Source: Escherichia coli
GTDB taxonomy: Bacteria > Pseudomonadota > Gammaproteobacteria > Enterobacterales > Enterobacteriaceae
Direction: 5' to 3' (one strand)
NCBI RefSeq assembly: GCF_036507355.1
Contig: NZ_AP027877.1
Length of the DNA stretch: 64,000 nt
Positions 21,682-54,896 of the stretch are shown one piece after another. Position 1 is the first letter of the stretch. Every line of letters begins with the position of its first letter. The notes below the pieces were generated by a model. That model saw only the letters and a list, made by a program, of their open reading frames with translations. It made no database searches and was not told the origin of the DNA. Position numbers and translations under genes: made by a program.

Positions 21682-22137
21682 TTATTCGCTACGGCGGGCA
21701 ATAATTTTTAGCGCAGCAATATTATGCGTTTTACGCCGTAACTGATCGAATCGTCTCATCCCTATTCGCCTGTCAGCAGCACGCAGAATATTCACTAACC
21801 CCCATTTATCGCTGGTAAATTGTTTTGTTAACAGCTCCGCTTTTGGGGTATCAATATATTCACGCAATAAATCAGAAATTGAACAAATATCCGTCAGGTA
21901 AGGATACCAGCAAGTTTCACCGTGAAAATTACGCACTCCACCGTTACCTGCAATAAAGTCTTTCGGGTAATCCCAGATCACGTTTTTATCCAACGTGATC
22001 CAATAACGCGGTAAATCGGTGCTTCCACCATTTTGGCTGCGCATGGGATAACGGGTACAGTGAATTTGCAGGTTGATCGTTGGCGTCAGTAAGTCATAGA
22101 TCTCCCGCTGTAACTTGCTCCATGGACGTTGTGTCAT
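21682..22137 (-). CDS. hypothetical protein, 151 aa, distal gene of an AT-rich accessory operon (possibly the counterpart of K-12 ykiA, unverified)
   Basis: Intact ORF; start ATG overlaps the stop of the upstream 169-aa ORF by 4 nt (ATGA), indicating translational coupling; below-average GC. Confidence 0.6.
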   Translation of the reverse strand: MTQRPWSKLQREIYDLLTPTINLQIHCTRYPMRSQNGGSTDLPRYWITLDKNVIWDYPKDFIAGNGGVRNFHGETCWYPYLTDICSISDLLREYIDTPKAELLTKQFTSDKWGLVNILRAADRRIGMRRFDQLRRKTHNIAALKIIARRSE

Positions 22138-22643
22138 TGTTTTTCCTCAAGCCGGTGACGCGCTTCACTGCGAATTTTCCGCGTTGCCCCGGTTTTCACT
22201 AAATCACGTAACAGCGAAAGATCGGGTTGTTCGACAAATAAGAGTAATGATGGATCCTCTTTTAACCACGCCGTTTTCACATCGGCAGCCAGCTGTGGAT
22301 TATTAATAGCCAGCGACCGATCCTGAGGCTCAGTCAATGTCGTTAACAACGACGCCGGGGTATGTGCGTTGCGTAATGCCGTTTGGCGCAAATGATCATT
22401 GCGACTTTGCAGCAATGCACGCCACCATTCATCATCTGATTTATCTTTTATCGTCGCCAGTTCCGCAAAAATATCGCTATCCTCACGGTTCCAGCGGTGT
22501 AATCCTCTTTCACTTTGCCTACGGGTGCTATTTTTCATACTGACAACAGACAGCGCCCAGTCAGAGTTGAAGCGATACTGTTGATCGAGTTTGTTGATAA
22601 TTCCGGAAGATAAATCTTTATTATCAAATAATTGGTTACGCAT
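22134..22643 (-). CDS. hypothetical repeat-containing protein, 169-aa frame; probably the C-terminal part of the upstream large ORF after a frameshift
   Basis: Frame overlaps the 3' 109 nt of ORF 22535-24154; product continues the same Leu/Arg-rich helical repeat character (HTPASLLTTLTEPQDRSLAINNPQLAADV...). Confidence 0.5.
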   Translation of the reverse strand: MRNQLFDNKDLSSGIINKLDQQYRFNSDWALSVVSMKNSTRRQSERGLHRWNREDSDIFAELATIKDKSDDEWWRALLQSRNDHLRQTALRNAHTPASLLTTLTEPQDRSLAINNPQLAADVKTAWLKEDPSLLLFVEQPDLSLLRDLVKTGATRKIRSEARHRLEEKQ

Positions 22644-24201
22644 TCGATAGCGGTATTCAGCGGGTAAATCAACCGTAAATCAATGGCATTATTTAACATC
22701 TCTTCGTCAACAACACCATTATCAATCAGCGCCAGCTGTACTTCGTAGGCTTGCTCTTGATCTTCTTGCCGTTTGCTCATCATTAAATTTAATGTGCGTT
22801 GCCATAACTGTTTCTTATATTCCAGCGGCAATAATTTATCGCGTGCCAGCTCATCCCAGACGGTGGGAACATCATGCTGAGTCAGTAGATAACTAATTAC
22901 TTCCCTCGATGTCAGATAACGCGCACCTTCGCGCAAATTGTGCACATCTTCTTTTGCCAGAGACAGTTGACGCATCTCCGGCAACGCTATCAATAACGCC
23001 TTTACGATATTTTTATTTTCTTTATTATCCAGATACATTTGTTCTGCGATACGTTCAATATCCTCTGTACGCAGGGTTGCTGACAGTTGGGTAATTTTTA
23101 ATTCAGTAAGCGTCCGGGCTAATGCTTCACGAACTTTCAGTGATTTATCTTTACTCAACATCACTGCTTGTTGTGCGGTTAAATCTGCTCCGGTAATTCT
23201 TTCACGTAACTCCGGGTCTTCGTTATTTATCAACTCATCGGCCACTGCAGTCGGAACCAGCCAGGCGTAATCGTAATGGCTGAGTAATGTCTTGCGTACA
23301 CTGAGAAAGGGGCTATGACTTAACGACGCAACAATATCTGGAGAAAGATTATCCTGTCTGGCCTGCTCCAGCTGTACGCTCTCGACGGGTACAGACATTA
23401 ATTTTTTATTCACATCGGCGGAAATATTACTGTTTTTAACCAGCCCTCTGGCAACAGCCTCATCTTTAATTAATTCATCGGTAAGCAAATGCATCTGTTG
23501 AGCGGGCCAGGACTGCGCCATCGATTCACGCGTCTGGTCATCGGGGTGCTGTAACAGTTGCAGCATAACGGCGGGTGATAAACTCTCTGTATGAGTCAGA
23601 AAACGCGCCACCAGTGGATCTTGATGCTTTATTTTATTCGCTGGGAAATTATCGAGTTTCCCCGTTTCAATCCATTTTAATTTCTCATTAATTTCAGGAG
23701 CGGCTTTATCTCGAAAAAGCGGTAAACCCTGAACGATGTTGTCTGCGACGCTATCATAGTCAGGATACGCATTGGAAATGTTATCGGTTTCGATTTCAGT
23801 GTGATCATAAAGATCGGCAGTCACCAGTGAATAGGATTTTTGAATATTCTCATCCCAGTTATATCCTTCACCACTTCCATCTTCATTGATATAAAATTCA
23901 GCTTTAATGACTTCAAATTGCGTTGCTTTATCGGAAACAATAATGCCTCGCGCACTAATTCCCTTCATCACTTCAAAGTTATGATCATTGTAATCAGCAT
24001 AAACTAAACCTTTCGCTGTCATCTGTCCTTTGACATACGCGAAATCATGATTAATAAAGTTATCGACAATAACATTACCTAATACAATCAGATGACCATT
24101 ACCTGACAGATAATCATCATAATCGCCGGAAATCGTTAAATTACCGTTCACCACCAGTTTATTTTGATTGCTGAAGTTAGCGGGTAATGATAGGTCACCA
24201 T
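22535..24201 (-). pseudogene. large repeat-rich (HEAT/LRV-like helical repeats, by-eye call) protein gene, N-terminally truncated by IS1 and probably frameshifted near 22680
   Basis: Reading frame is open upstream of the annotated GTG (24154) straight into the IS1 end at 24202 with no start codon; repeated motifs of type LSPDIVASLSHSPFLSVRKTL / DPELRERITGADLTAQQAVMLSKDKSLKVREALA; AT-rich. Confidence 0.6.
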
Positions 24202-24216
24202 GGTAATGACTCCAAC

Positions 24217-24720
24217 TTATTGATAGTGTTTTATGTTCAGATAATGCCCGATGACTTTGTCATGCAGCTCCACCGATTTTGAGAACGACAGCGACTTCCG
24301 TCCCAGCCGTGCCAGGTGCTGCCTCAGATTCAGGTTATGCCGCTCAATTCGCTGCGTATATCGCTTGCTGATTACGTGCAGCTTTCCCTTCAGGCGGGAT
24401 TCATACAGCGGCCAGCCATCCGTCATCCATATCACCACGTCAAAGGGTGACAGCAGGCTCATAAGACGCCCCAGCGTCGCCATCGTGCGTTCACCGAATA
24501 CGTGCGCAACAACCGTCTTCCGGAGCCTGTCATACGCGTAAAACAGCCAGCGCTGGCGCGATTTAGCCCCGACATAGCCCCACTGTTCGTCCATTTCCGC
24601 GCAGACGATGACGTCACTGCCCGGCTGTATGCGCGAGGTTACCGACTGCGGCCTGAGTTTTTTAAGTGACGTAAAATCGTGTTGAGGCCAACGCCCATAA
24701 TGCGGGCTGTTGCCCGGCAT
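24217..24720 (-). CDS. insB: IS1 transposase InsB (expressed as InsAB' by -1 frameshift)
   Basis: 167-aa [19 protein letters not shown]..., recognised IS1 InsB. Confidence 0.93.
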
Positions 24721-24914
24721 CCAACGCCATTCATGGCCATATCAATGATTTTCTGGTGCGTACCGGGTTGAGAAGCGGTGTAAGTGAACTGCAGTTGCCA
24801 TGTTTTACGGCAGTGAGAGCAGAGATAGCGCTGATGTCCGGCGGTGCTTTTGCCGTTACGCACCACCCCGTCAGTAGCTGAACAGGAGGGACAGCTGATA
24901 GAAACAGAAGCCAC
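24639..24914 (-). CDS. insA: IS1 protein InsA
   Basis: 91-aa [46 protein letters not shown]..., recognised IS1 InsA. Confidence 0.95.
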
Positions 24915-25141
24915 TGGAGCACCTCAAAAACACCATCATACACTAAATCAGTAAGTTGGCAGCATCACCCAGATGACCAATATATTAATTCTATTCATAA
25001 TCTTCAATGATATTTATATCAACCTTGATGAATTATGAATATATCGGAAATTGAAAAAATCGCAGCAAAGGAAATATTATTATGGGTTAAAGAGATGATA
25101 TTTCAGAAAAATGCCCTCCCGTTCAAGGGGAAGGCGAGGAA

Positions 25142-37315: not shown

Positions 37316-38473
37316 TTGAAACGTAGTCTGCTTTTTTCTGCCGTGCTGTGTGCGGCGTCATTGACCTCCGTCCATGCGGCGCAGCCGATCACTGAACCGG
37401 AGTTTGCCTCTGATATTGTCGATCGTTATGCCGATCATATTTTTTACGGCAGCGGTGCCACGGGGATGGCGCTGGTTGTTATCGACGGTAACCAGCGCGT
37501 CTTTCGCAGTTATGGCGAAACGCGACCTGGTAATAACGTTCGCCCGCAGCTGGATTCGGTCGTGCGTATTGCTTCCCTCACCAAGCTAATGACCAGTGAG
37601 ATGCTGGTGAAATTGCTCGACCAGGGGACCGTGAAGTTAAACGATCCGCTAAGTAAATATGCTCCGCCAGGCGCACGCGTGCCAACCTACAATGGGACGC
37701 CCATTACGCTGGTCAATCTGGCAACCCATACCAGCGCCCTGCCCCGTGAACAGCCCGGTGGCGCGGCACATCGTCCGGTGTTTGTCTGGCCAACGCGCGA
37801 GCAACGCTGGAAATACCTTTCTACGGCGAAGCTGAAAGCCGCGCCAGGCAGTCAGGCGGCGTACTCTAACCTTGCGTTCGACCTGCTGGCAGATGCACTG
37901 GCGAATGCGTCCGGCAAGCCTTATACCCAGTTGTTTGAAGAGCAGATTACCCGTCCATTGGGGATGAAAGACACCACCTACACCCCCTCACCGGATCAGT
38001 GCCGCCGTTTAATGGTTGCTGAGCGCGGTGCCAGTCCGTGCAATAACACGCTGGCGGCAATTGGCAGCGGCGGCGTCTATTCCACGCCTGGCGATATGAT
38101 GCGCTGGATGCAGCAGTATTTGTCATCTGATTTTTATCAGCGCAGTAACCAGGCAGATCGCATGCAGACGTTGATTTATCAGCGCGCGCAGTTTACGAAA
38201 GTGATTGGCATGGATGTCCCCGGCAAAGCGGATGCGCTTGGTTTAGGCTGGGTATATATGGCCCCGAAAGAGGGTCGTCCGGGGATTATTCAGAAGACAG
38301 GTGGTGGTGGCGGTTTCATTACCTATATGGCGATGATCCCGCAGAAGAATATTGGCGCGTTTGTGGTGGTCACTCGTTCGCCGTTGACGCGCTTTAAAAA
38401 TATGAGCGATGGCATCAATGATCTGGTGACCGAGCTAAGCGGGAATAAACCGTTGGTTATCCCCGCGTCCTGA
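37316..38473 (+). CDS. ampH: D-alanyl-D-alanine carboxypeptidase/endopeptidase AmpH (class C beta-lactamase fold)
   Basis: 385-aa ORF with signal peptide and SxxK motif (SLTK). Confidence 0.93.
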   Translation: MKRSLLFSAVLCAASLTSVHAAQPITEPEFASDIVDRYADHIFYGSGATGMALVVIDGNQRVFRSYGETRPGNNVRPQLDSVVRIASLTKLMTSEMLVKLLDQGTVKLNDPLSKYAPPGARVPTYNGTPITLVNLATHTSALPREQPGGAAHRPVFVWPTREQRWKYLSTAKLKAAPGSQAAYSNLAFDLLADALANASGKPYTQLFEEQITRPLGMKDTTYTPSPDQCRRLMVAERGASPCNNTLAAIGSGGVYSTPGDMMRWMQQYLSSDFYQRSNQADRMQTLIYQRAQFTKVIGMDVPGKADALGLGWVYMAPKEGRPGIIQKTGGGGGFITYMAMIPQKNIGAFVVVTRSPLTRFKNMSDGINDLVTELSGNKPLVIPAS

Positions 38474-38663
38474 TTAATACTCTGAAGGCAAACGGTTGAT
38501 AGCGACCAGTTTGCCTTTATTCATTTCGATATAGCCGCCTTTACGCAAAGCAGCGAGAACTTCTGCGACGACAGAACGCGATATGCGTGTACGTTGATGG
38601 ATATAATTCATCACACCAATACGTGATCGCAATTCTTCATTCCAGTCAATCATTGATAATAAC

Positions 38664-38722
<59 letters not shown>

Positions 38723-38920
38723 AATTCTATTTTGCCAGGCTAACCAGTAAAAAGCGTCTCGCCAGAGTTGATTTTGTTCAATAAGCGTAATGGTTTGTTT
38801 GGCTGGTAGATGATATCCCGTACAATTTCCTTCTGATATTAATTTGTATGGTATATCGTTTTTCAGGTGATGCTGCCAACTTACTGATTTAGTGTATGAT
38901 GGTGTTTTTGAGGTGCTCCA

Positions 38921-39196
38921 GTGGCTTCTGTTTCTATCAGCTGTCCCTCCTGTTCAGCTACTGACGGGGTGGTGCGTAACGGCAAAAGCACCGCCGGACA
39001 TCAGCGCTATCTCTGCTCTCACTGCCGTAAAACATGGCAACTGCAGTTCACTTACACCGCTTCTCAACCCGGTACGCACCAGAAAATCATTGATATGGCC
39101 ATGAATGGCGTTGGATGCCGGGCAACAGCCCGCATTATGGGCGTTGGCCTCAACACGATTTTACGTCACTTAAAAAACTCAGGCCGCAGTCGGTAA
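38921..39196 (+). CDS. insA: IS1 protein InsA
   Basis: Identical to the InsA of the other IS1 copy. Confidence 0.95.
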
Positions 39197-39618
39197 CCTC
39201 GCGCATACAGCCGGGCAGTGACGTCATCGTCTGCGCGGAAATGGACGAACAGTGGGGCTATGTCGGGGCTAAATCGCGCCAGCGCTGGCTGTTTTACGCG
39301 TATGACAGGCTCCGGAAGACGGTTGTTGCGCACGTATTCGGTGAACGCACGATGGCGACGCTGGGGCGTCTTATGAGCCTGCTGTCACCCTTTGACGTGG
39401 TGATATGGATGACGGATGGCTGGCCGCTGTATGAATCCCGCCTGAAGGGAAAGCTGCACGTAATCAGCAAGCGATATACGCAGCGAATTGAGCGGCATAA
39501 CCTGAATCTGAGGCAGCACCTGGCACGGCTGGGACGGAAGTCGCTGTCGTTCTCAAAATCGGTGGAGCTGCATGACAAAGTCATCGGGCATTATCTGAAC
39601 ATAAAACACTATCAATAA
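39115..39618 (+). CDS. insB: IS1 transposase InsB
   Basis: Identical to the InsB of the other IS1 copy. Confidence 0.93.
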
Positions 39619-39821
39619 GTTGGAGTCATTACCCGTTTTTCATTAAACCATCAGCCAGCCCCATAATATAAGGAGCCTGGGTAATACCGATAAGTACGTT
39701 TTCTTCTCTACGCAGAGAGATAACGCCCTCTAAAATAACGAAAGTATCTTCGCTATTGACATCACTGGAAAATATAACTTGCTTTTCATTATTAAACTCG
39801 AAGCGCGTACCGTATCTGGAC

Positions 39822-39939
<118 letters not shown>

Positions 39940-39963
39940 TATTTCTTCGGAGTGAAGAATATT

Positions 39964-40132
<169 letters not shown>

Positions 40133-40150
40133 TGAATCGCCACGGATAAT

Positions 40151-40963
40151 CTAGACACTTCCGAGCCGTTGATAATACTGGTTTTCATATTCTGTCGGTG
40201 ACATCTGATCGCTGGAACCATGCCGACGCTTACTGTTATAAAACATTTCGATGTAATCAAAAATATCGCTGCGGGCTTCTTCCCGCGTTCCGTAGATCTT
40301 TTTCTTTATCCGTTCGCGTTTCAACAACTGGAAAAAGCTTTCTGCAACCGCATTATCATGGCAGTTACCGCGACGGCTCATGCTGCCATCCAGGCCGTGT
40401 GATTTCAGGAACGACTGCCACTCATGGCTTGTGTACTGACTGCCCTGATCCGAATGAACCAGCACCTGTTTTTGGGGATTACGGCGCCATACAGCCATCA
40501 GCAGTGCGTTCAGGACAATGTCCTTTGTCATCCGGGATTGCATGGACCAGCCGATAATTTTGCGTGAGAACAGATCAACAACCACGGCAAGATACAGCCA
40601 GCCTTCGTGGGTCCTGATGTAGGTTATGTCCGTTACCCAACGCTTATCCGGAGCATCCGGATTGAACTGTCGCTGGAGCCTGTTGGGCGACACGATACTG
40701 GCCTCGCCTTTACGTGCCCGCGGGCTCCGGTATCCGACCTGAGCCTTTATCCCGACACGTTTCATCAGTCGCCAGACTCTGTTCACTCCGCACTGTTGCC
40801 CGCTGTCCCGCAGATCCAGATGGATTTTGCGATAACCATAGACGCATCCCGATTCCAGCCAGAACTGTTTAATCTGCCCTGTCAGCCTCAGGTCTGCCTG
40901 ATGGCGTTGTGAATGCGGCTGCTGAAGCCAGGCGTAAAAACCACTGGGATGAACATCCAGCAC
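40151..40963 (-). CDS. IS3-family transposase OrfB (DDE catalytic domain)
   Basis: 270-aa ORF with DITYI...WLYLAVVVDLFSRKIIGW, HSDQGSQYTS and ...DNAVAESFFQLLKRE motifs characteristic of IS3-family integrase core. Confidence 0.9.
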   Translation of the reverse strand: MLDVHPSGFYAWLQQPHSQRHQADLRLTGQIKQFWLESGCVYGYRKIHLDLRDSGQQCGVNRVWRLMKRVGIKAQVGYRSPRARKGEASIVSPNRLQRQFNPDAPDKRWVTDITYIRTHEGWLYLAVVVDLFSRKIIGWSMQSRMTKDIVLNALLMAVWRRNPQKQVLVHSDQGSQYTSHEWQSFLKSHGLDGSMSRRGNCHDNAVAESFFQLLKRERIKKKIYGTREEARSDIFDYIEMFYNSKRRHGSSDQMSPTEYENQYYQRLGSV

Positions 40964-41019
40964 CCGACAGAGCAGGCGAACAGGCCAGCAACAGGTGTTG
41001 TCACGGATAAAGGCGTACC

Positions 41020-41298
41020 TCAGTCGGACAGCTTTGCGAAGTACGCCGCGGCTTTTTTTAATATGTCCCGTTCGTCGGTAACCCGCTTCAGCTCTTTCTG
41101 GAGACGGCGGATCTCGGCCTGAGCATCTGACTGTTCTTTATTAGCGGAAGAATCCGGACCGTACTTCTTTATCCAGGCGTAAAGGCTGTGGGTGGTGATA
41201 TCGAGACGTGTTGCAACGCTGGCAACAGAATAACCGCGATCAACAACCTGTTTGACTGCTTCAATTTTAAACTCTTCGGGATAACGCTTACCGCTCAT
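41020..41298 (-). CDS. IS3-family transposase OrfA (HTH DNA-binding, leucine zipper)
   Basis: MSGKRYPEEFKIEAVKQVVDRGYSVASVATRLDITTHSLYAWIKKY...ILKKAAAYFAKLSD. Confidence 0.9.
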   Translation of the reverse strand: MSGKRYPEEFKIEAVKQVVDRGYSVASVATRLDITTHSLYAWIKKYGPDSSANKEQSDAQAEIRRLQKELKRVTDERDILKKAAAYFAKLSD

Positions 41299-41360
41299 GG
41301 GCACCTCTCTTTAAGCCATCTTAAATGACTCTGAGGTGTCTGTTAAACCCGTGGCGATTC

Positions 41361-41699
41361 ACCATGAATCAGGGAGTTGCTGATGTTCAACTGGTTTGTT
41401 GTTCCATCAGTAAAGTCATGATTCAGGTAATATGTAGAGATAGCCCCGTTAACAGTGTCACCATTAAAGGTGGTATCGAAATCACCGTTTGTGTTGTTAT
41501 AGTAGACAAAGCCACTATAATTCACATAGTTACCATCTACAGTACCCGGTGCATCCATATTGCTCCAGTCAAGAGCAGTAGTTGGATTGTCGTAATAAGT
41601 CCAGGTGTCATAAGTAGTTGCATTAGCCTGAGAGGTGATAGCCAGAGTGCAAGCCAATGCTAATTGTGATACTACAAGTTTCTTTTTCCAGGAGTGCAT
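41361..41699 (-). pseudogene. yaiT: autotransporter N-terminal fragment (signal peptide + start of passenger domain; yaiT-like remnant) running into the IS3-family element
   Basis: MHSWKKKLVVSQLALACTLAITSQANA signal peptide followed by Thr/Asn/Tyr-rich passenger-like sequence; the last 5 codons and stop are supplied by the IS terminal repeat. Confidence 0.55.
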
Positions 41700-46719: not shown

Positions 46720-47021
46720 GATTGTCTGCTCCCCTGTCTTGTTATGGGAGCAGTATTTCGTTGCGGGTCAGTTTGATAAAGGAATTAAAAGGTCTTGTTA
46801 AGAACAAAGCGTTTTTAGAAAAAAATCGGCAATGGTTAGCGAGTTTGCGCATTTTGCGGTTTTGGCGAACGTATCCCGCCGGTTCACAAGCCAGATAATA
46901 TGTGCGCGCTCCGGCAAATTATTGCCATTTTGTTACATCCATTCCATATCTGTCGCTGGTTGATTGCCAGCGCCGCGCCGTGATGCATGATAGGAGAATT
47001 AGATAATAAGAGAAGAAAAGT

Positions 47022-47651
47022 ATGATTCGGGTAGTGCTGGTGGATGACCATGTGGTGGTGCGCTCTGGCTTCGCACAATTACTCTCTCTGGAAGACGATC
47101 TGGAGGTCATTGGTCAGTACAGTAGTGCCGCGCAGGCATGGTCGGCATTAATCCGTGATGACGTCAATGTTGCCGTCATTGATATTGCCATGCCGGACGA
47201 AAACGGCCTCAGTTTGCTTAAGCGCCTGCGTGCACAAAAACCGCAATTTCGCGCCATTATTCTTAGCATTTATGACGCGCCAACCTTTGTGCAAAGCGCG
47301 CTGGATGCCGGTGCCAGCGGGTATTTAACCAAACGCTGTGGGCCGGAAGAGTTAGTGCAGGCGGTGCGCTCGGTCGGGCTGGGCGGGCATTATCTCTGTG
47401 CCGATGCGATTCGGGCTTTACGCGGCGGCGGGCAATCCGCCCAGGCGCTGGAAATTCTCACCCCGCGAGAACGTGAAGTGTTTGATTTACTTGTCAAAGG
47501 AGACAGCGTTAAAGAGATCGCCTTTAAACTCGAACTCAGTCATAAAACGGTACATGTGCATCGCGCCAATGTGCTGGGAAAACTGAACTGCCATAGCACC
47601 ATTGAACTGGTACATTTTGCGCTCGACCACCATCTGCTGGCGGGGCATTAA
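47022..47651 (+). CDS. UhpA-like NarL/FixJ-family response regulator (paralog, not canonical uhpA)
   Basis: 209-aa ORF MIRVVLVDDHVVVRSGFAQLL...; receiver domain plus LuxR-type HTH (EIAFKLELSHKTVHVHRANVLGKL); clearly similar to but distinct from K-12 UhpA. Confidence 0.85.
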   Translation: MIRVVLVDDHVVVRSGFAQLLSLEDDLEVIGQYSSAAQAWSALIRDDVNVAVIDIAMPDENGLSLLKRLRAQKPQFRAIILSIYDAPTFVQSALDAGASGYLTKRCGPEELVQAVRSVGLGGHYLCADAIRALRGGGQSAQALEILTPREREVFDLLVKGDSVKEIAFKLELSHKTVHVHRANVLGKLNCHSTIELVHFALDHHLLAGH

Positions 47652-49192
47652 TGTCGCGCAATCTTCGTCATTGGGTGATTTCGCTGTTTATTGTGCTGGC
47701 CTGGGGAACCGGCTGGCTGATGCTGTGGACGCTCAGCTTTTATCTGACCAATAACGGTCAACAGGCGGTGTTGTTTCTCCCGCAGGGAGTTTATCTCGCC
47801 CTTGTTATTTTGCTCTCTCGCCGCTACTGGCCTGCGTTGGTGCTCCCCCCTTTGCTGATGATGTTCTGGCTCCATAGTGAACAGCTATTGAACGGTTATC
47901 TCATGCTGGCAACGCCGATTATTAGCCTGTTTCCTGTCCTCCTTGCGCAAAACTTCTGGCACCGTTTTCCACTTTACTGGCAGCGTCTGACGTTGCTGTT
48001 AGCCACTGTCACGGCAGCTTCATTGTTGAATACCGCCCTGCTCTCCCCTTTTATGTCAGGCCCAATAATGCTGCCGGGTTTGACCTCATTTACCGGCGGC
48101 GTATTACTGACGCCGTTTGTCTATCTTATCTTTGAGTTTCTGCGCCAGCAGCATCGCTACCAGCTCCTGGGACTCGATACGCATAATCCCCCCTTGCGTA
48201 CCTCTTTAATCATCTGGTGTAGCCTGTTTTTTATTATTGGTATCGGCACTCAGATGGTGCTGTCACCTGAAATTGAACGTCTGCTGTTGATCGTGGTCTT
48301 TTTGCCCAATGTGGTGATGGCGTGGAAATTTGGCTGGCAAGGTGGCGTACTCTCCGGGCTTTTGGGCAGCATGATGATCACCATCGCCCGCCAGATTGGC
48401 GTGGGCTTTAGTAACCTGGTGGAGCTGGAGATTTTCCTCGCGACCCAGGCCTTGCTGGGAATTGGCCTGGGCATTGCCATCAGTCGCCAGCAACATCTGG
48501 CGCTAAACCTGCACCATTACCGACAACGGCTGGAGGCCGAGCTGGCAGCGCGGCGGGCATTGGCGGAAAAGCTGATCCACACCGAGGAGGACACGCGAAA
48601 AAACCTGGCGCGAGAGCTGCACGACGAAATCGGTCAGAACATCACCGCCATTCAGATCCAGTCGCAACTGGTGAAGCGGGCGCGTGATCCGGCGCAAATT
48701 CAATCCGCAGCCAGCCAAATCAATGAGCTCGCCCGCCGCATTCATCTCTCCACCCGCCAATTGCTGCGCCAGTTGCGGCCTCCCGCGCTTGATGAACTGA
48801 CATTTCGCGAAGCGTTGTTGCATCTGATTAATGAATTTGCCTTTAGTGAACGCGGCATTCATTGCCAGTTTGCCTATCAACTGAACTCCACACCAGAAAA
48901 CGAAACGGTGCGCTTTACCTTGTATCGGTTATTACAGGAGTTGCTCAATAACGTCTGTAAACACGCCGAAGCCAGCGAAGTGACGATTATCCTGCGCCAG
49001 CAGGGAGAGGTATTGCATCTGGAAGTCAGCGACAACGGTGTGGGGATCGCCAGCGGGAAAATGGCCGGATTTGGCATTCAGGGGATGCGTGAGCGCGTCA
49101 GCGCCCTGGGCGGCGACTTAACGCTCGAAAAACAGCACGGCACGCGGGTAATTGTTAACTTGCCCACATTTTTGCAACAAATCGCCGGATAA
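47651..49192 (+). CDS. UhpB-like membrane sensor histidine kinase
   Basis: 513-aa ORF, N-terminal multi-TM domain, H-box ELHDEIGQNITAI, C-terminal HATPase; start overlaps regulator stop (TAATG). Confidence 0.85.
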   Translation: MSRNLRHWVISLFIVLAWGTGWLMLWTLSFYLTNNGQQAVLFLPQGVYLALVILLSRRYWPALVLPPLLMMFWLHSEQLLNGYLMLATPIISLFPVLLAQNFWHRFPLYWQRLTLLLATVTAASLLNTALLSPFMSGPIMLPGLTSFTGGVLLTPFVYLIFEFLRQQHRYQLLGLDTHNPPLRTSLIIWCSLFFIIGIGTQMVLSPEIERLLLIVVFLPNVVMAWKFGWQGGVLSGLLGSMMITIARQIGVGFSNLVELEIFLATQALLGIGLGIAISRQQHLALNLHHYRQRLEAELAARRALAEKLIHTEEDTRKNLARELHDEIGQNITAIQIQSQLVKRARDPAQIQSAASQINELARRIHLSTRQLLRQLRPPALDELTFREALLHLINEFAFSERGIHCQFAYQLNSTPENETVRFTLYRLLQELLNNVCKHAEASEVTIILRQQGEVLHLEVSDNGVGIASGKMAGFGIQGMRERVSALGGDLTLEKQHGTRVIVNLPTFLQQIAG

Positions 49193-49264
49193 CCAGGAAA
49201 AAGTCTTAGGTATCCCGGATTTTCTCTCATCCCCTTTCACTTTCATTTTCATATAGTCAGCAAC

Positions 49265-50581
49265 ATGGAGACAACCATGCACGCGCGTTCAGCGAGAGAA
49301 ATTAATCAATGCTACCGGACATTACGTCCGCGATTGCTGATGTGCATGATTATTGGCTACGCCGCATTTTATCTGACGCGAAAAAGCGTGAATTACGTCC
49401 TTCCGGCGCTACAAACCGACCTCGGACTGGATAAAGGCGACATTGGCCTGCTGGGTTCGCTGTTTTATCTCAGCTACGGATTGTCGAAATTTACCGCCGG
49501 ACTGTGGCATGACAGCCACGGACAACGCGGTTTTATGGGCGTCGGCTTGTTCGCCACCGGGTTATTGAACGTGGTGTTTGCCTTTGGCGAATCACTTACG
49601 CTTCTGCTTGTGGTCTGGACACTGAACGGTTTTTTTCAGGGCTGGGGATGGCCACCGTGTGCCCGCTTGCTGACCCACTGGTACTCACGCAATGAGCGCG
49701 GTTTCTGGTGGGGCTGCTGGAATATGTCGATCAACATTGGCGGAGCGATTATTCCGCTGATTAGCGCCTTTGCCGCCCACTGGTGGGGCTGGCAGGCCGC
49801 GATGCTGACACCGGGGATAATCAGCATGGCATTAGGGATCTGGTTAACGCTACAACTCAAAGGCACGCCCCAGGAAGAGGGATTACCGACAGTTGGTCAC
49901 TGGCGTCACGATCCGCTGGAGTTACGTCAGGAACAACAAAGTCCGCCGATGGGGCTGTGGCAAATGTTGCGCACCACCATGCTGCAAAATCCGCTGATCT
50001 GGCTACTGGGCGTCTCTTATGTACTGGTTTATGTGATCCGGATTGCGCTTAACGACTGGGGCAATATCTGGCTGACGGAAAGCCACGGTGTCAACCTGCT
50101 CAGCGCCAACGCCACGGTAATGCTGTTTGAAGTGGGCGGCTTACTCGGCGCGTTATTTGCCGGATGGGGATCGGATTTGCTGTTTAGCGGGCAACGAGCG
50201 CCAATGATTTTGCTGTTCACGTTGGGGTTGATGGTGTCAGTCGCCGCACTGTGGCTGGCACCGGTTCATCACTACGCTCTGCTGGCAGTGTGCTTTTTTA
50301 CCGTGGGCTTTTTCGTCTTTGGCCCACAAATGCTGATTGGACTTGCGGCGGTGGAGTGTGGGCACAAAGCTGCGGCGGGTTCAATCACCGGATTTCTCGG
50401 CCTGTTCGCTTACCTTGGCGCGGCGCTGGCAGGCTGGCCGCTGTCGCTGGTCATCGAACGCTACGGCTGGCCGGGAATGTTCAGTTTACTCTCGGTCGCC
50501 GCAGTACTTATGGGTTTACTGCTGATGCCGTTACTGATGGCGGGCATCACCACCACTCACGCTCGAAGGATAAAACAATGA
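49265..50581 (+). CDS. UhpC-like MFS membrane sensor/transporter
   Basis: 438-aa 12-TM MFS ORF resembling UhpC/UhpT organophosphate:phosphate antiporter family. Confidence 0.8.
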   Translation: METTMHARSAREINQCYRTLRPRLLMCMIIGYAAFYLTRKSVNYVLPALQTDLGLDKGDIGLLGSLFYLSYGLSKFTAGLWHDSHGQRGFMGVGLFATGLLNVVFAFGESLTLLLVVWTLNGFFQGWGWPPCARLLTHWYSRNERGFWWGCWNMSINIGGAIIPLISAFAAHWWGWQAAMLTPGIISMALGIWLTLQLKGTPQEEGLPTVGHWRHDPLELRQEQQSPPMGLWQMLRTTMLQNPLIWLLGVSYVLVYVIRIALNDWGNIWLTESHGVNLLSANATVMLFEVGGLLGALFAGWGSDLLFSGQRAPMILLFTLGLMVSVAALWLAPVHHYALLAVCFFTVGFFVFGPQMLIGLAAVECGHKAAAGSITGFLGLFAYLGAALAGWPLSLVIERYGWPGMFSLLSVAAVLMGLLLMPLLMAGITTTHARRIKQ

Positions 50582-51609
50582 AAATGACCTTTACCTCTAC
50601 TCTGATTGCTTCTGCCGTTGCGCTGGCGACTTTAACGGGTGCCGCGCAGGCAAAAGGCCGGCTGGTGGTCTATTGCAGCGCCACCAATGAAATGTGTGAG
50701 GCCGAAACCAAAGCGTTTGGCGAGAAATATGATGTAAAAACCTCGTTTATCCGCAACGGTTCCGGAAGCACCCTGGCAAAAGTCGATGCTGAAAAGAAAA
50801 ACCCCCAGGCTGACGTCTGGTACGGCGGCACTTTAGACCCGCAATCGCAGGCTGGCGAGATGGGCCTGCTACAGGCGTATAAATCCCCTAACCTTGAGCA
50901 GATCATGGAGAAATTCCGCGATCCGGCAAAAGTGAAAGGGAATCTGTCCTCTGCCGTTTATGTGGGGATCCTCGGTTTTGGCGTAAACACCGATCGTCTG
51001 AAAGAGAAAAACCTGCCGGTGCCGAAGTGCTGGAAAGATCTCACCAAACCGGAATATAAAGGCGAAATTCAAATTGCCGATCCGCAAAGTTCCGGTACTG
51101 CCTACACCGCCCTGGCTACTTTTGCGCAGCTGTGGGGGGAAGATCAGGCCTTTGATTATCTAAAACAACTGAACGCCAACGTCTCTCAGTACACCAAATC
51201 AGGCATAGCCCCGGCACGTAACGCCGCCCGTGGCGAAACGGCGATTGGTATTGGCTTCCTGCATGACTACTCGCTGGAAAAAGAACAGGGCGCGCCGCTG
51301 GAGTTGATTTCCCCGTGTGAAGGTACAGGCTACGAAATTGGCGGCGTCAGCATTCTGAAAGGCGCGCGCAACCTCGACAACGCCAAACTGTTTGTGGACT
51401 GGGTATTATCAAAAGAAGCGCAGGAACTGGCATGGAAGAAAGGGAAGTCTTATCAGATCCTGACCAATACCACCGCCGAAACGTCGCCAAACTCACTGAA
51501 GCTCGACGACCTGAAATTAATCAACTACGACATGGACAAATACGGTTCCACGGATGTTCGTAAGGCATTGATTAATAAATGGGTTAGCGAAGTAAAAATG
51601 GGTAAATAA
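50578..51609 (+). CDS. afuA: periplasmic substrate-binding protein of AfuA/FbpA family (ABC importer; likely sugar-phosphate rather than ferric iron)
   Basis: 343-aa product with signal peptide MKMTFTSTLIASAVALATLTGAAQA; ATG overlaps uhpC-like stop (ATGA); followed by two-domain permease and ATPase. Confidence 0.7.
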   Translation: MKMTFTSTLIASAVALATLTGAAQAKGRLVVYCSATNEMCEAETKAFGEKYDVKTSFIRNGSGSTLAKVDAEKKNPQADVWYGGTLDPQSQAGEMGLLQAYKSPNLEQIMEKFRDPAKVKGNLSSAVYVGILGFGVNTDRLKEKNLPVPKCWKDLTKPEYKGEIQIADPQSSGTAYTALATFAQLWGEDQAFDYLKQLNANVSQYTKSGIAPARNAARGETAIGIGFLHDYSLEKEQGAPLELISPCEGTGYEIGGVSILKGARNLDNAKLFVDWVLSKEAQELAWKKGKSYQILTNTTAETSPNSLKLDDLKLINYDMDKYGSTDVRKALINKWVSEVKMGK

Positions 51610-51677
51610 ACCCGCATTAGGCGCATTTGCCGGGTGCAGCGCAGACGCCTGCCCCGGCCAACCATACCGGAACTGCT

Positions 51678-53756
51678 ATGTCACAGACACTTGCACTCCA
51701 TCCCGTGAAAAAGCGGGATGCGATTTTCCTTTGGGTTTTGCTGGGCTGGCTGGCATTTATACTGTTGCCGAGCTGGAGCCTCGATTATGGCCTGCTGGAG
51801 TCCACGAGTGATGAGATCCTCGAGGCTTATGGCTGGTCGCATTTTAATATCAGCTGGCTGTGGTATTTGTTACCGAGTCTGTTGCTGGTTCGCCCGTTTC
51901 GTGAGGCCACACGCGAACAGCGTAGTCGTCATTATTTTGATGCCGGCTGGGCATTGCTCTGTATGGCGTTTATCGTCATCAGCGCCACCGTGGTTGGACG
52001 CGGTTTAGGCTACGCCGCCATCGTGCTGTTTGTCGAACTAGGCGCGATTATGACGCTGGCCTTAACCCGCCTCGAATGGCTGGGTGGCGACCGCTTCGTG
52101 ATCGGCTCACTGATTGCGATTGTGGCGCTGATTGGCATTTTTATCGTCTGGCCGAGCATCGCCATTTTTATCCCGATGTTCACCAACGACGCGGGAGAGT
52201 TCGCCCCGCTGGCGTTTATGACCGTGCTCTCGCAGGCACATATTGTTCAGGTGATCGTCAACTCTATCGTCTTGTCGATAGCGGTGGGGATAGGCTGTAC
52301 TTTCTTCGGCCTGGTGCTGGCGATTTATACCACGCGCATCGCTAAACGCAGCGCCATTATTGGTCGCATCTTTTCCATTTTGCCCATCGTTACGCCACCG
52401 TTTGTGGTCGGCTTAGGCGTGACGCTCATGATGGGGCGCTCCGGCTATGTTACGGAATTTATGGTGGAGTGGTTTGGGCTGACCAACACCAACTGGCTGT
52501 ACGGTTTTACCGGGATCTGGCTGGCACAGGTTCTGGCATTCACGCCAATGGCATTTATGATCCTCGACGGGGCCATTAAAACCATTCATCCCTCGCTGGA
52601 AGAGGCCTCCTACACCCTGCGCGCCAGCCGCTGGCAAACCTTTAACGGCGTGTTTGTGCCGTTGTTGAAGCCCGCACTCGCCAATGCCTTTTTAATCGTC
52701 GTGGTACAGTCACTGGCTGATTTCAGTAACCCGCTGGTACTTGGCGGTAACTTCGACGTACTGGCGACGCAAATTTACTTCTATATTACCGGCTCGCAGC
52801 TGGATTATCAGGCCGCCAGCACCCTTGGCGCTTTCCTGCTGCTGTTCTCGCTGCTGGTGTTCTGCATCCAGTATATGTGGATTGGTAAACGCTCTTACGT
52901 CACGGTTTCCGGCAAATCCTACCGTGGCGACGTCCAGCCGCTACCGGTCACCCTGGTGTGGAGCGTGGTCGCCATACTTGCGATATGGATTGCCTTTAAC
53001 GCCCTGCTCTACGGCAGCATTTTCTACGGCAGCTTCACGGTGAACTGGGGCGTGGACTACACCCTGACGCTGGATAACTTTATCAAGCTATTTGGTCAGG
53101 GAATGAGCGACGGCGCCTGGCCTTCACTGCTGGATACCCTGCTCTACGCCGGGATTGCCGCTCCCATTACCGCTATCTTTGGCCTGCTCATCGCCTGGGT
53201 GGTGGTGCGTCAACAATTCAAAGGCAAAAAGACCATCGAGTTCACCACCATGCTGTGCTTTGCCGTACCGGGTACGGTGGCGGGCGTTTCGTATATTCTT
53301 GCCTTTAACAGCGCTCCGGTTTATCTCACCGGAACGGCGGCAATTGTGATTATCTCGATGGTGATGCGTAACGTTCCGGTGGGTATTCGCGCCGGGATTG
53401 CGGGTCTGGGGCAGATCGACAAATCGCTGGATGAAGCCTCACTCAGCCTGCGCGCGGGTTCACTGCGAACCATTACGCACATTTTACTGCCGCTGCTGCG
53501 CCCGGCCATTCTCTCGGCCCTGATCTACAGCTTTGTGCGGGCCATCACGACGGTCAGCGCCATCGTCTTTCTCGTCACGCCGGACACCCGCGTGGCAACC
53601 GCCTACATTCTTAACCGCGTTGAAGACGGCGAATATGGCGTAGCCATCGCCTATGGTTCGATTCTGATCGTGGTGATGCTGGCGATTATTTTCCTCTTTG
53701 ACTGGCTGATCGGAGAAGCTCGTATCTCCCGTTCTAAAGCCAAAAACCAGGCGTAA
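51678..53756 (+). CDS. afuB: ABC transporter permease, duplicated 6-TM domains (AfuB/FbpB type)
   Basis: ~692-aa polytopic protein with two permease repeats; start may be up to 17 codons upstream. Confidence 0.7.
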
Positions 53757-54814
53757 TGGAGCGCACTATGAGTCAGAAAAATTTTGTTGAACTGCGCAAC
53801 GTCACTAAACGATTCGGCAGTAATACGGTTATCGACAATATCAATCTCACCATTCCACAAGGGCAAATGGTGACGCTGCTCGGTCCTTCCGGCTGTGGCA
53901 AAACCACCATTTTGCGTCTGGTTGCCGGGCTGGAAAAACCGAGCGAAGGGCAAATTTTTATTGATGGCGAAGATGTCACGCATCGTTCCATTCAACAGCG
54001 CGATATCTGCATGGTGTTTCAGTCATACGCTCTGTTCCCGCATATGTCGCTGGGTGAAAACGTTGGCTACGGGCTGAAGATGCTTGGCGTGTCGCGTAGC
54101 GAAGTGAAACAGCGGGTGAAGGAGGCGCTGGCAATGGTGGATCTGGAAGGCTTCGAGGACCGCTATGTCGATCAGATTTCCGGTGGTCAGCAACAGCGTG
54201 TGGCACTGGCCCGCGCGTTGATCCTCAAGCCAAAGGTGCTGCTGTTTGATGAGCCGTTAAGTAACCTCGATGCCAACCTGCGCCGCAGTATGCGCGATAA
54301 GATCCGCGAGCTGCAAAAGCAGTTTAATATCACGTCGCTCTACGTCACTCACGATCAAAGTGAAGCTTTCGCGGTGTCCGACACTGTGCTGGTGATGAAT
54401 AAAGGTCACATCATGCAGATTGGCTCACCGCAGGATCTCTATCGTCAGCCAGCCTCCCGATTTATGGCAAGTTTTATGGGCGACGCCAACCTGTTCCCGG
54501 CGAACTTTAGCGAAGAGTATGTCGATATCTACGGTTATCGCCTGCCGCGCGCGGCGCATTTCCCGGCGCAAGGTAGCGGCACCGTCGGCGTTCGCCCGGA
54601 AGCCATCACCTTAAGCAATCACGGCGAAGAGAGTCAGCGTTGTGTTATTCGCCATGTCGCCTACATGGGGCCGCAGTACGAAGTGACCGTAGAGTGGCAT
54701 GGACAGGAGATTTTATTACAAGTAAACGCCACCCGTTTACAGCCCGATATTGGTGAGCACTATTACCTCGAAATCCATCCTTACGGGATGTTTGTTTTAG
54801 CGGATGCGGCATAA
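53756..54814 (+). CDS. afuC: ABC transporter ATP-binding protein (AfuC/FbpC/PotA type)
   Basis: Walker [10 protein letters not shown], signature [15 protein letters not shown], Walker [12 protein letters not shown]; start overlaps afuB stop (TAATG). Confidence 0.8.
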
Positions 54815-54896
54815 AAATAGCACATAAACGGTCCCCATCTGTCTTGAGGGACCGTTCACCTGGTTAGGCTTCGGACAACAATTATTCTCCAGTGTT

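Follow-up and report, generated by a model that had tools for sequence, protein, structure and literature searches.

Insertion of IS1 into iprA (yaiV) in an Escherichia coli strain and the recurrence of iprA disruption in the species

The iprA locus and its IS1 element

The window analysed here, a stretch of 64,000 nucleotides of the E. coli contig NZ_AP027877.1 (RefSeq assembly GCF_036507355.1), shares 96-99% identity with K-12 and, a few islands apart, is collinear with that genome. On its minus strand lies iprA, the gene formerly named yaiV, in two parts with a complete IS1 between them. The gene is monocistronic and converges on ampH, the stop codons of the two genes abutting at 38473/38474. 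The features of the locus are as follows.

38474-38865, minus strand: C-terminal fragment of iprA, with the stop codon and codons 93-222 of the long ORF; excision of IS1 brings it into frame with the N-terminal part
38857-38865, no strand: left copy of the target-site duplication, CGTTTTTCA, read from the letters and single-copy in K-12
38866-39633, plus strand (antisense to iprA transcription): IS1, complete, 768 bp, identified by its length, ends and transposase models
38866-38888, plus strand: left terminal inverted repeat (IRL) of IS1, matching the right one (IRR) at 18 of 23 bases and overlapping the weak insA promoter (PMC12428005)
38921-39196, plus strand: insA, an ORF of 91 aa whose product is both a repressor and the part of the transposase that binds DNA
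39115-39618, plus strand: insB' frame, which encodes the catalytic DDE part and is expressed solely within the InsAB' fusion (38921-39618); DDE_Tnp_IS1 E = 3.5e-78
39172-39178, plus strand: slippery motif A6C, at which a -1 frameshift produces InsAB'; the fused frame is open for 232 aa
39611-39633, plus strand: IRR of IS1, an imperfect inverted copy of IRL
39634-39642, no strand: right copy of the target-site duplication, CGTTTTTCA, read from the letters and single-copy in K-12
39634-39919, minus strand: N-terminal fragment of iprA, codons 1-95 of the long ORF; as it stands it ends in GLMKN, one Gly and a stop, 96 aa (ORF 39629-39919)
39926-39948, minus strand: CyuR-like motif GAAGAAATACTGGTAATTTAATC in the intact iprA upstream region, identical to the site that PMC11408624 gives for yaiV at -75

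The insert opens with GGTGATGCTGCCAACTTACTGAT and closes with an imperfect inverted repeat in which 18 of the 23 bases match. Its InsAB' fusion scored 245 bits against a cut-off of 100 for the NCBIfam model transpos_IS1 and matched the Pfam models Zn_ribbon_InsA, HTH_Tnp_IS1 and DDE_Tnp_IS1, and a consensus scan placed a promoter-like site at 38873-38900. Judged by these features the copy in iprA is structurally complete, and it may be active. It is identical (100%) to the second IS1 copy of the window at 24202-24969.

When the locus was aligned with K-12 MG1655, the left flank stopped at locus position 8739 and the right flank began at 8747, so that their overlap is the 9-mer and nothing else; K-12 has this 9-mer a single time at the iprA site. 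The CGTTTTTCA copies, corresponding to nt 278-286 of the gene, are thus a true target duplication and not a chance repeat; identity of a random 9-mer at both exact boundaries would be expected with P ~4e-6. A duplication of 9 bp also fits the IS1 hallmark of 8-9 bp. The sequence to either side, with ampH and the 3' end of ehaB/yaiT respectively, runs collinear with K-12, and the insertion is a simple one without accompanying rearrangement.

The initial annotation had described a yaiV gene split by a complete IS1 through a simple transposition free of further rearrangement, and each part of this description is borne out: the coordinates of both gene fragments and of the identical 9-mers proved exact, the element has the length, the terminal repeats and the transposase matches of a full IS1, and the neighbouring genes keep their K-12 arrangement. 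Its further suggestion that the event was probably recent can be followed in part. Recent insertion is plausible from the undecayed gene fragments, from the 100% identity of the twin IS1 copies and from a junction found in 0 of 5,426 complete E. coli genomes among the matches listed.

All 52 of the 52 K-12 orthologues in the window other than iprA are intact, so the window is unlike a heavily decayed Shigella genome. The second IS1 (24202-24969) lies in the opposite orientation between the flanks ggtcaccat and cagatgacc, which form no target duplication, and this suggests an IS1-associated deletion or recombination. It borders a 2.5-kb segment (22476-24999) that is absent from K-12 and sits between ppnP and ykiA; a 539-aa ORF in this segment (22535-24154, 42% GC) gave no Pfam, NCBIfam or PADLOC match. 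At 21682-22643, where K-12 has only a ykiA pseudogene remnant, the window carries intact ORFs, one of the SF0329 family (151 aa) and one of DUF2773 (169 aa). Beside iprA, at 40133-41362, a 1,230-bp IS3-family element with TGAATCGCCACGG... terminal repeats stands in place of ~2.4 kb of the autotransporter gene ehaB/yaiT, of which a 171-nt 3' piece and a 118-aa N-terminal ORF persist in the flanks of the element (39962-40132 and 41363-41699). It is distinct from IS3B of K-12. The flanking triplets, gtt and cca, differ, so that a 3-bp duplication is lacking and an IS-mediated deletion is suggested. The ehaB'-IS3 arrangement was absent from the complete E. coli genomes searched, and the junction ORF was found in three short-read Logan contigs only, all of them ending at the IS; one of these, ERR3330519_26, shares the ehaB'-IS3 junction and differs from the window by 2 mismatches in 6,366 bp (99.97% over 6.4 kb). 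In place of yaiO-yaiX-yaiP-yaiS of K-12 the window has an 8.1-kb island (46758-54881), which another E. coli genome (L005) carries in the same arrangement. Its products are two-component proteins resembling UhpA and UhpB, an MFS receptor resembling UhpC, and an ABC transporter made up of a binding protein, a fused two-domain permease and an ATPase. Relative to K-12 there is also a 1.6-kb insertion between acpH and malZ (4861-6484), and its 473-aa lysine-rich ORF (4876-6297, minus strand, 36% GC) had no Pfam, NCBIfam or PADLOC match.

The reconstituted gene and the predicted fold of IprA

Removal of IS1 together with one copy of the 9-mer yielded a gene of 669 nt, 222 codons plus a stop, running on the minus strand from 39919 to 38474. 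The reconstituted 669-nt ORF is free of internal stops and frameshifts. The gene differed from K-12 yaiV (b0375) by 3 nt and one amino acid (N56S; 99.6% nucleotide identity) and from the intact allele of another E. coli genome (L003) by a single nucleotide (99.85% identity). The reconstituted protein reached 457.5 bits against a cut-off of 359 for the NCBIfam IprA equivalog NF008810 ('hydrogen peroxide resistance inhibitor IprA'), residues 16-222 aligning with model positions 1-207. By this reconstruction iprA is a gene that was intact before IS1 arrived. It had been proposed earlier that excision in silico would restore an open frame of ~222 codons comparable with K-12 yaiV, and that stops or frameshifts would instead mark a gene already broken; the restored frame is intact and nearly identical to that of K-12, and neither kind of lesion is found in it.

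The figure of 222 codons holds for the longest ORF, whereas the current gene model is shorter. RefSeq starts the protein at Met16, with the start codon at 39874, and so gives 207 aa and not 222. A CyuR-like site is listed for yaiV at -75 in PMC11408624, and the matching motif in the window lies only 7 nt upstream of the ATG of the 222-codon frame. Because of this short distance, and because the NCBIfam model spans 207 residues, the shorter model is probably the real one, with Met16 as the probable true start of iprA.

The split gene had further been assigned to a Crp/Fnr-family regulator, an assignment that the predicted fold upholds and sequence-level membership does not. The Pfam model HTH_46 (PF15977) matched residues 153-220 with E = 6e-31 and was the sole HTH model matched; it is not a Crp-type model. 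The cNMP_binding model (PF00027) stayed below threshold (E = 0.005; score 17.2 bits, cut-off 27.5); a few distant homologues carry a precomputed PF00027 match. Searches of the PDB with the single sequence and with a 37-sequence profile returned no Crp or Fnr protein; matches to a phycobilisome linker and to FadR from these searches were rejected as spurious.

An AlphaFold model of IprA was built on the 37-sequence alignment and had a mean pLDDT of 84.1, compared with 36 for the single-sequence model. It consists of an N-terminal beta-barrel, a long helix (112-149 in the 207-aa numbering) and a C-terminal winged helix. When this model was compared with the PDB by Foldseek, the best 50 matches were all CRP/CAP, CLP, Vfr, NtcA, Clr or annotated Crp/Fnr regulators, with probability 1.0, E ~1e-8 and ~200 aligned columns at TM-scores of merely 0.45-0.54; the low scores may arise from a different relative orientation of the two IprA domains in the model. 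A Crp/Fnr-like fold is therefore supported for IprA at the level of the predicted structure, and membership of the family by sequence is not.

Consequence of the insertion

IS1 breaks the gene after codon 95 of the long ORF, that is, at residue 80 in the 207-aa numbering, a position that the AlphaFold model places inside the N-terminal beta-barrel and ahead of the strands 84-88 and 92-98, the helix 112-149 and the winged HTH. It is the C-terminal fragment that encodes these two final strands of the barrel, together with the long helix and the HTH_46 winged-helix domain. Since the dimerisation helix and the winged helix are cut off, the iprA::IS1 allele is, on the predicted structure, almost certainly null. 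No polar effect on other genes is expected, because iprA is convergent with ampH.

We propose that iprA was functional until a structurally complete IS1 transposed into it, the target being the most AT-rich 60 nt of the gene, and that a staggered cut followed by repair would have duplicated the 9-bp CGTTTTTCA. The promoter-proximal remnant would then specify 95 native residues and one Gly and would lack the last two barrel strands, the dimerisation helix and the winged HTH, while the distal remnant would be left without a promoter or a start of its own. We are highly confident of this reading, in which a complete IS1 inserted into functional iprA and gave a null allele, and it would mean that the IprA regulator is almost certainly absent from this strain. 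The mechanism is not new; it is a textbook, routine IS1 knockout of a non-essential, AT-rich regulator gene.

The function of IprA has been described solely for the Salmonella orthologue, which is ~71% identical. According to PMC11952850, PMC6527747 and PMC11408624, which cite Herman et al. (2016, J Bacteriol 198:2166), deletion of iprA in Salmonella Typhimurium gives higher resistance to oxidative stress and H2O2 and lowers fim expression. By analogy it is plausible that the loss of IprA brings higher peroxide resistance and altered fimbrial expression to this strain. In K-12, yaiV is reported to be silenced by H-NS, and binding and regulation by FNR were seen only without H-NS and StpA (PMC3688515). 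On account of this silencing the knockout may be phenotypically silent under many conditions, and any phenotype may be conditional.

Recurrence of iprA disruption and competing readings

Chimeric probes joining 50 nt of iprA flank to 50 nt of IS1 end were run in both orientations against 5,426 complete E. coli genomes, the IS1 offsets being derived from the match spans and two of them verified directly (SLK172 and N18-04097). The IS1-iprA junction of the window was found in 0 of the 5,426 genomes among the matches listed. A 32-nt junction sequence had no exact match in the GTDB species representatives, no junction-specific protein (the 96-aa N-terminal ORF or a predicted 139-aa contig-end fragment) is on record in the protein databases, and no link between iprA/yaiV and IS1 was found in the papers searched.

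Insertions elsewhere in the gene were numerous. In the orientation of the window at least 16 IS1 sites were obtained (+37, +61, +63, +123, +133, +144, +165, +195, +266, -60, -78, -110, -153, -210, -248 and -337), and in the opposite orientation at least 15 (+14, +18, +19, +51, +63, +77, +163, +250, -18, -45, -210, -227, -319, -324 and -375). At least about 30 distinct IS1 sites thus lie inside iprA across the 5,426 genomes, and at least ~1% of the genomes are affected. A near-match at +3 in N18-04097 (L014) was rejected: it is an insertion of the SLK172 type (L015) with a 153-bp adjacent deletion. This genome keeps the right-hand IS1 junction of SLK172 and lacks 153 bp of iprA beside the left end of IS1, an IS1-adjacent deletion that followed insertion.

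The same probe design was applied to two other regions, with the following result for one orientation.

iprA, 669 bp, 41% GC: at least 16 independent IS1 sites
ampH (neighbour control), 1,100 bp, 55% GC: 0 IS1 sites among the matches listed
iraP region (AT-rich control), 1,100 bp, 40% GC: at least 9 IS1 sites

The GC content is 40.8% in iprA, 55.4% in ampH and 51.6% in the window as a whole, and it falls to 28% in the 60 nt around the insertion site.

These figures bear on why such alleles exist, a question on which one answer is compatible with the null-allele reading given above. The insertion may be a neutral by-product of the preference of IS1 for AT-rich, H-NS-bound DNA, iprA being dispensable, silenced and tolerant of hits; we incline slightly towards this explanation. 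The graded counts in iprA, the iraP region and ampH point to it, as does the position of the sites, 13 of the ~31 (among the matches listed) falling in the AT-richest trough of iprA, no more than 80 nt from the site in the window, and so does the H-NS silencing reported for yaiV. AT preference would by these counts explain most of the iprA pattern. Against a wholly neutral origin, the density of sites in iprA is still ~3 times that of the AT-matched control (binomial P ~0.007, from a single control region and with kinship ignored), and iprA is also broken in ways unrelated to IS1 targeting. The latter include insertions of IS2, of IS3-family elements and of IS5 (ISKpn26-like) (loci L010, L014 and L015; proteins P0008, P0011, P0024, P0070-P0072, P0082, P0085, P0089 and P0102, all types included), a nonsense mutation at codon 81, a deletion that fuses iprA with ampH, and frameshifted alleles counting 471 and 194 members in the databases. 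One IS3-family insertion in the iprA of another genome lies a single codon from the IS1 site of the window, and the IS3-family element that breaks iprA elsewhere is the same one that adjoins iprA here.

This recurrent breakage is compatible with relaxed selection or, possibly, with positive selection for loss. It can tentatively be suggested that positive selection has favoured the loss of iprA in certain lineages of E. coli or Shigella, higher peroxide resistance or altered fimbriation being examples of the gain, so that the allele of the window would be one of many convergent knockouts. The 30 or so IS1 junctions and the other types of disruption would agree with this, as would the excess of sites over the AT-rich control and the higher oxidative-stress resistance cited for the Salmonella iprA deletion in PMC11952850 and PMC11408624. 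The excess is modest, however, and was measured against one control region that is partly regulatory, for which reason insertions there may be purged; moreover IS1 sits in iprA in just ~1% of the genomes (a lower bound), and the gene is conserved across Enterobacteriaceae. The wider proposal is likewise rather doubtful. It would make iprA a locus of convergent loss in E. coli and Shigella, at which independent knockouts outpace AT preference and the loss of a Crp-like repressor of peroxide resistance is of advantage in some niches, the allele of the window being a fresh case. If a phylogenetic test upheld the recurrence, iprA would be flagged as a recurrently lost gene, and there would be reason to learn what IprA senses and regulates in E. 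coli.

Two readings depart from the null allele itself. In the first, an activity such as a dominant-negative effect or constitutive DNA binding is kept or acquired by the N-terminal peptide of 96 aa, or by a C-terminal winged-helix fragment that read-out from IS1 would express from GTG 38707. It draws on a distal frame that is open from inside IS1 across the junction into the C-terminal fragment, and on read-through fusion proteins called in other genomes (P0008, P0072 and P0085). That frame, however, meets a stop at 38954-38956 and contains no start before GTG 38707, from which 77 aa would be made; no convincing outward promoter of IS1 emerged from the consensus scan (4 sites against 2.8 expected), and the fragment would lack the predicted dimerisation helix, all of which makes residual activity very improbable. 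The second, that iprA was already a pseudogene on which the insertion had no effect, has on its side only the general frequency of broken iprA in E. coli and is the least credible of all, being effectively refuted by a reconstituted ORF without stop or frameshift that differs from K-12 by one conservative-looking change (N56S), is a single nucleotide away from an intact allele of another genome, scores above the equivalog cut-off and retains its upstream motif.

The proposed inactivation of a functional iprA by a complete IS1 can finally be set beside known systems. According to PMC12428005, IS1 is marked by a length of 768 bp, duplications of 8-9 bp, a transposase of 232 aa and the A6C frameshift, and the iprA-borne copy shares with IS1 of the IS1A/IS1E consensus type of K-12 the 768 bp, the imperfect repeats of ~23 bp, insA, the A6C motif, the 232-aa InsAB' and the 9-bp duplication. 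Two of its 768 nt (positions 444 and 486) deviate from K-12 IS1A, and 9 from IS1B/IS1C. The gene occupies the same place as K-12 yaiV, between ampH and ehaB/yaiT, where the K-12 gene is uninterrupted and the present one is cut after codon 95. With Crp/Fnr factors such as CRP/CAP, CLP, Vfr and NtcA, IprA shares the predicted beta-barrel, the long helix and the C-terminal winged HTH, but sequence identity is just 13-18%, the HTH of IprA is of the HTH_46 type, and cNMP_binding remains below threshold. Other IS1-disrupted iprA alleles (e.g. those of SLK172, L9, T16R and YY76-1) likewise carry IS1 inside the gene with a 9-bp duplication of their own (checked for SLK172, at +165); they differ from the allele of the window in their offsets, which range from -375 to +266 nt in both orientations, and in the variants involved (IS1A, IS1B and IS1X4-like), and the junction is never shared.
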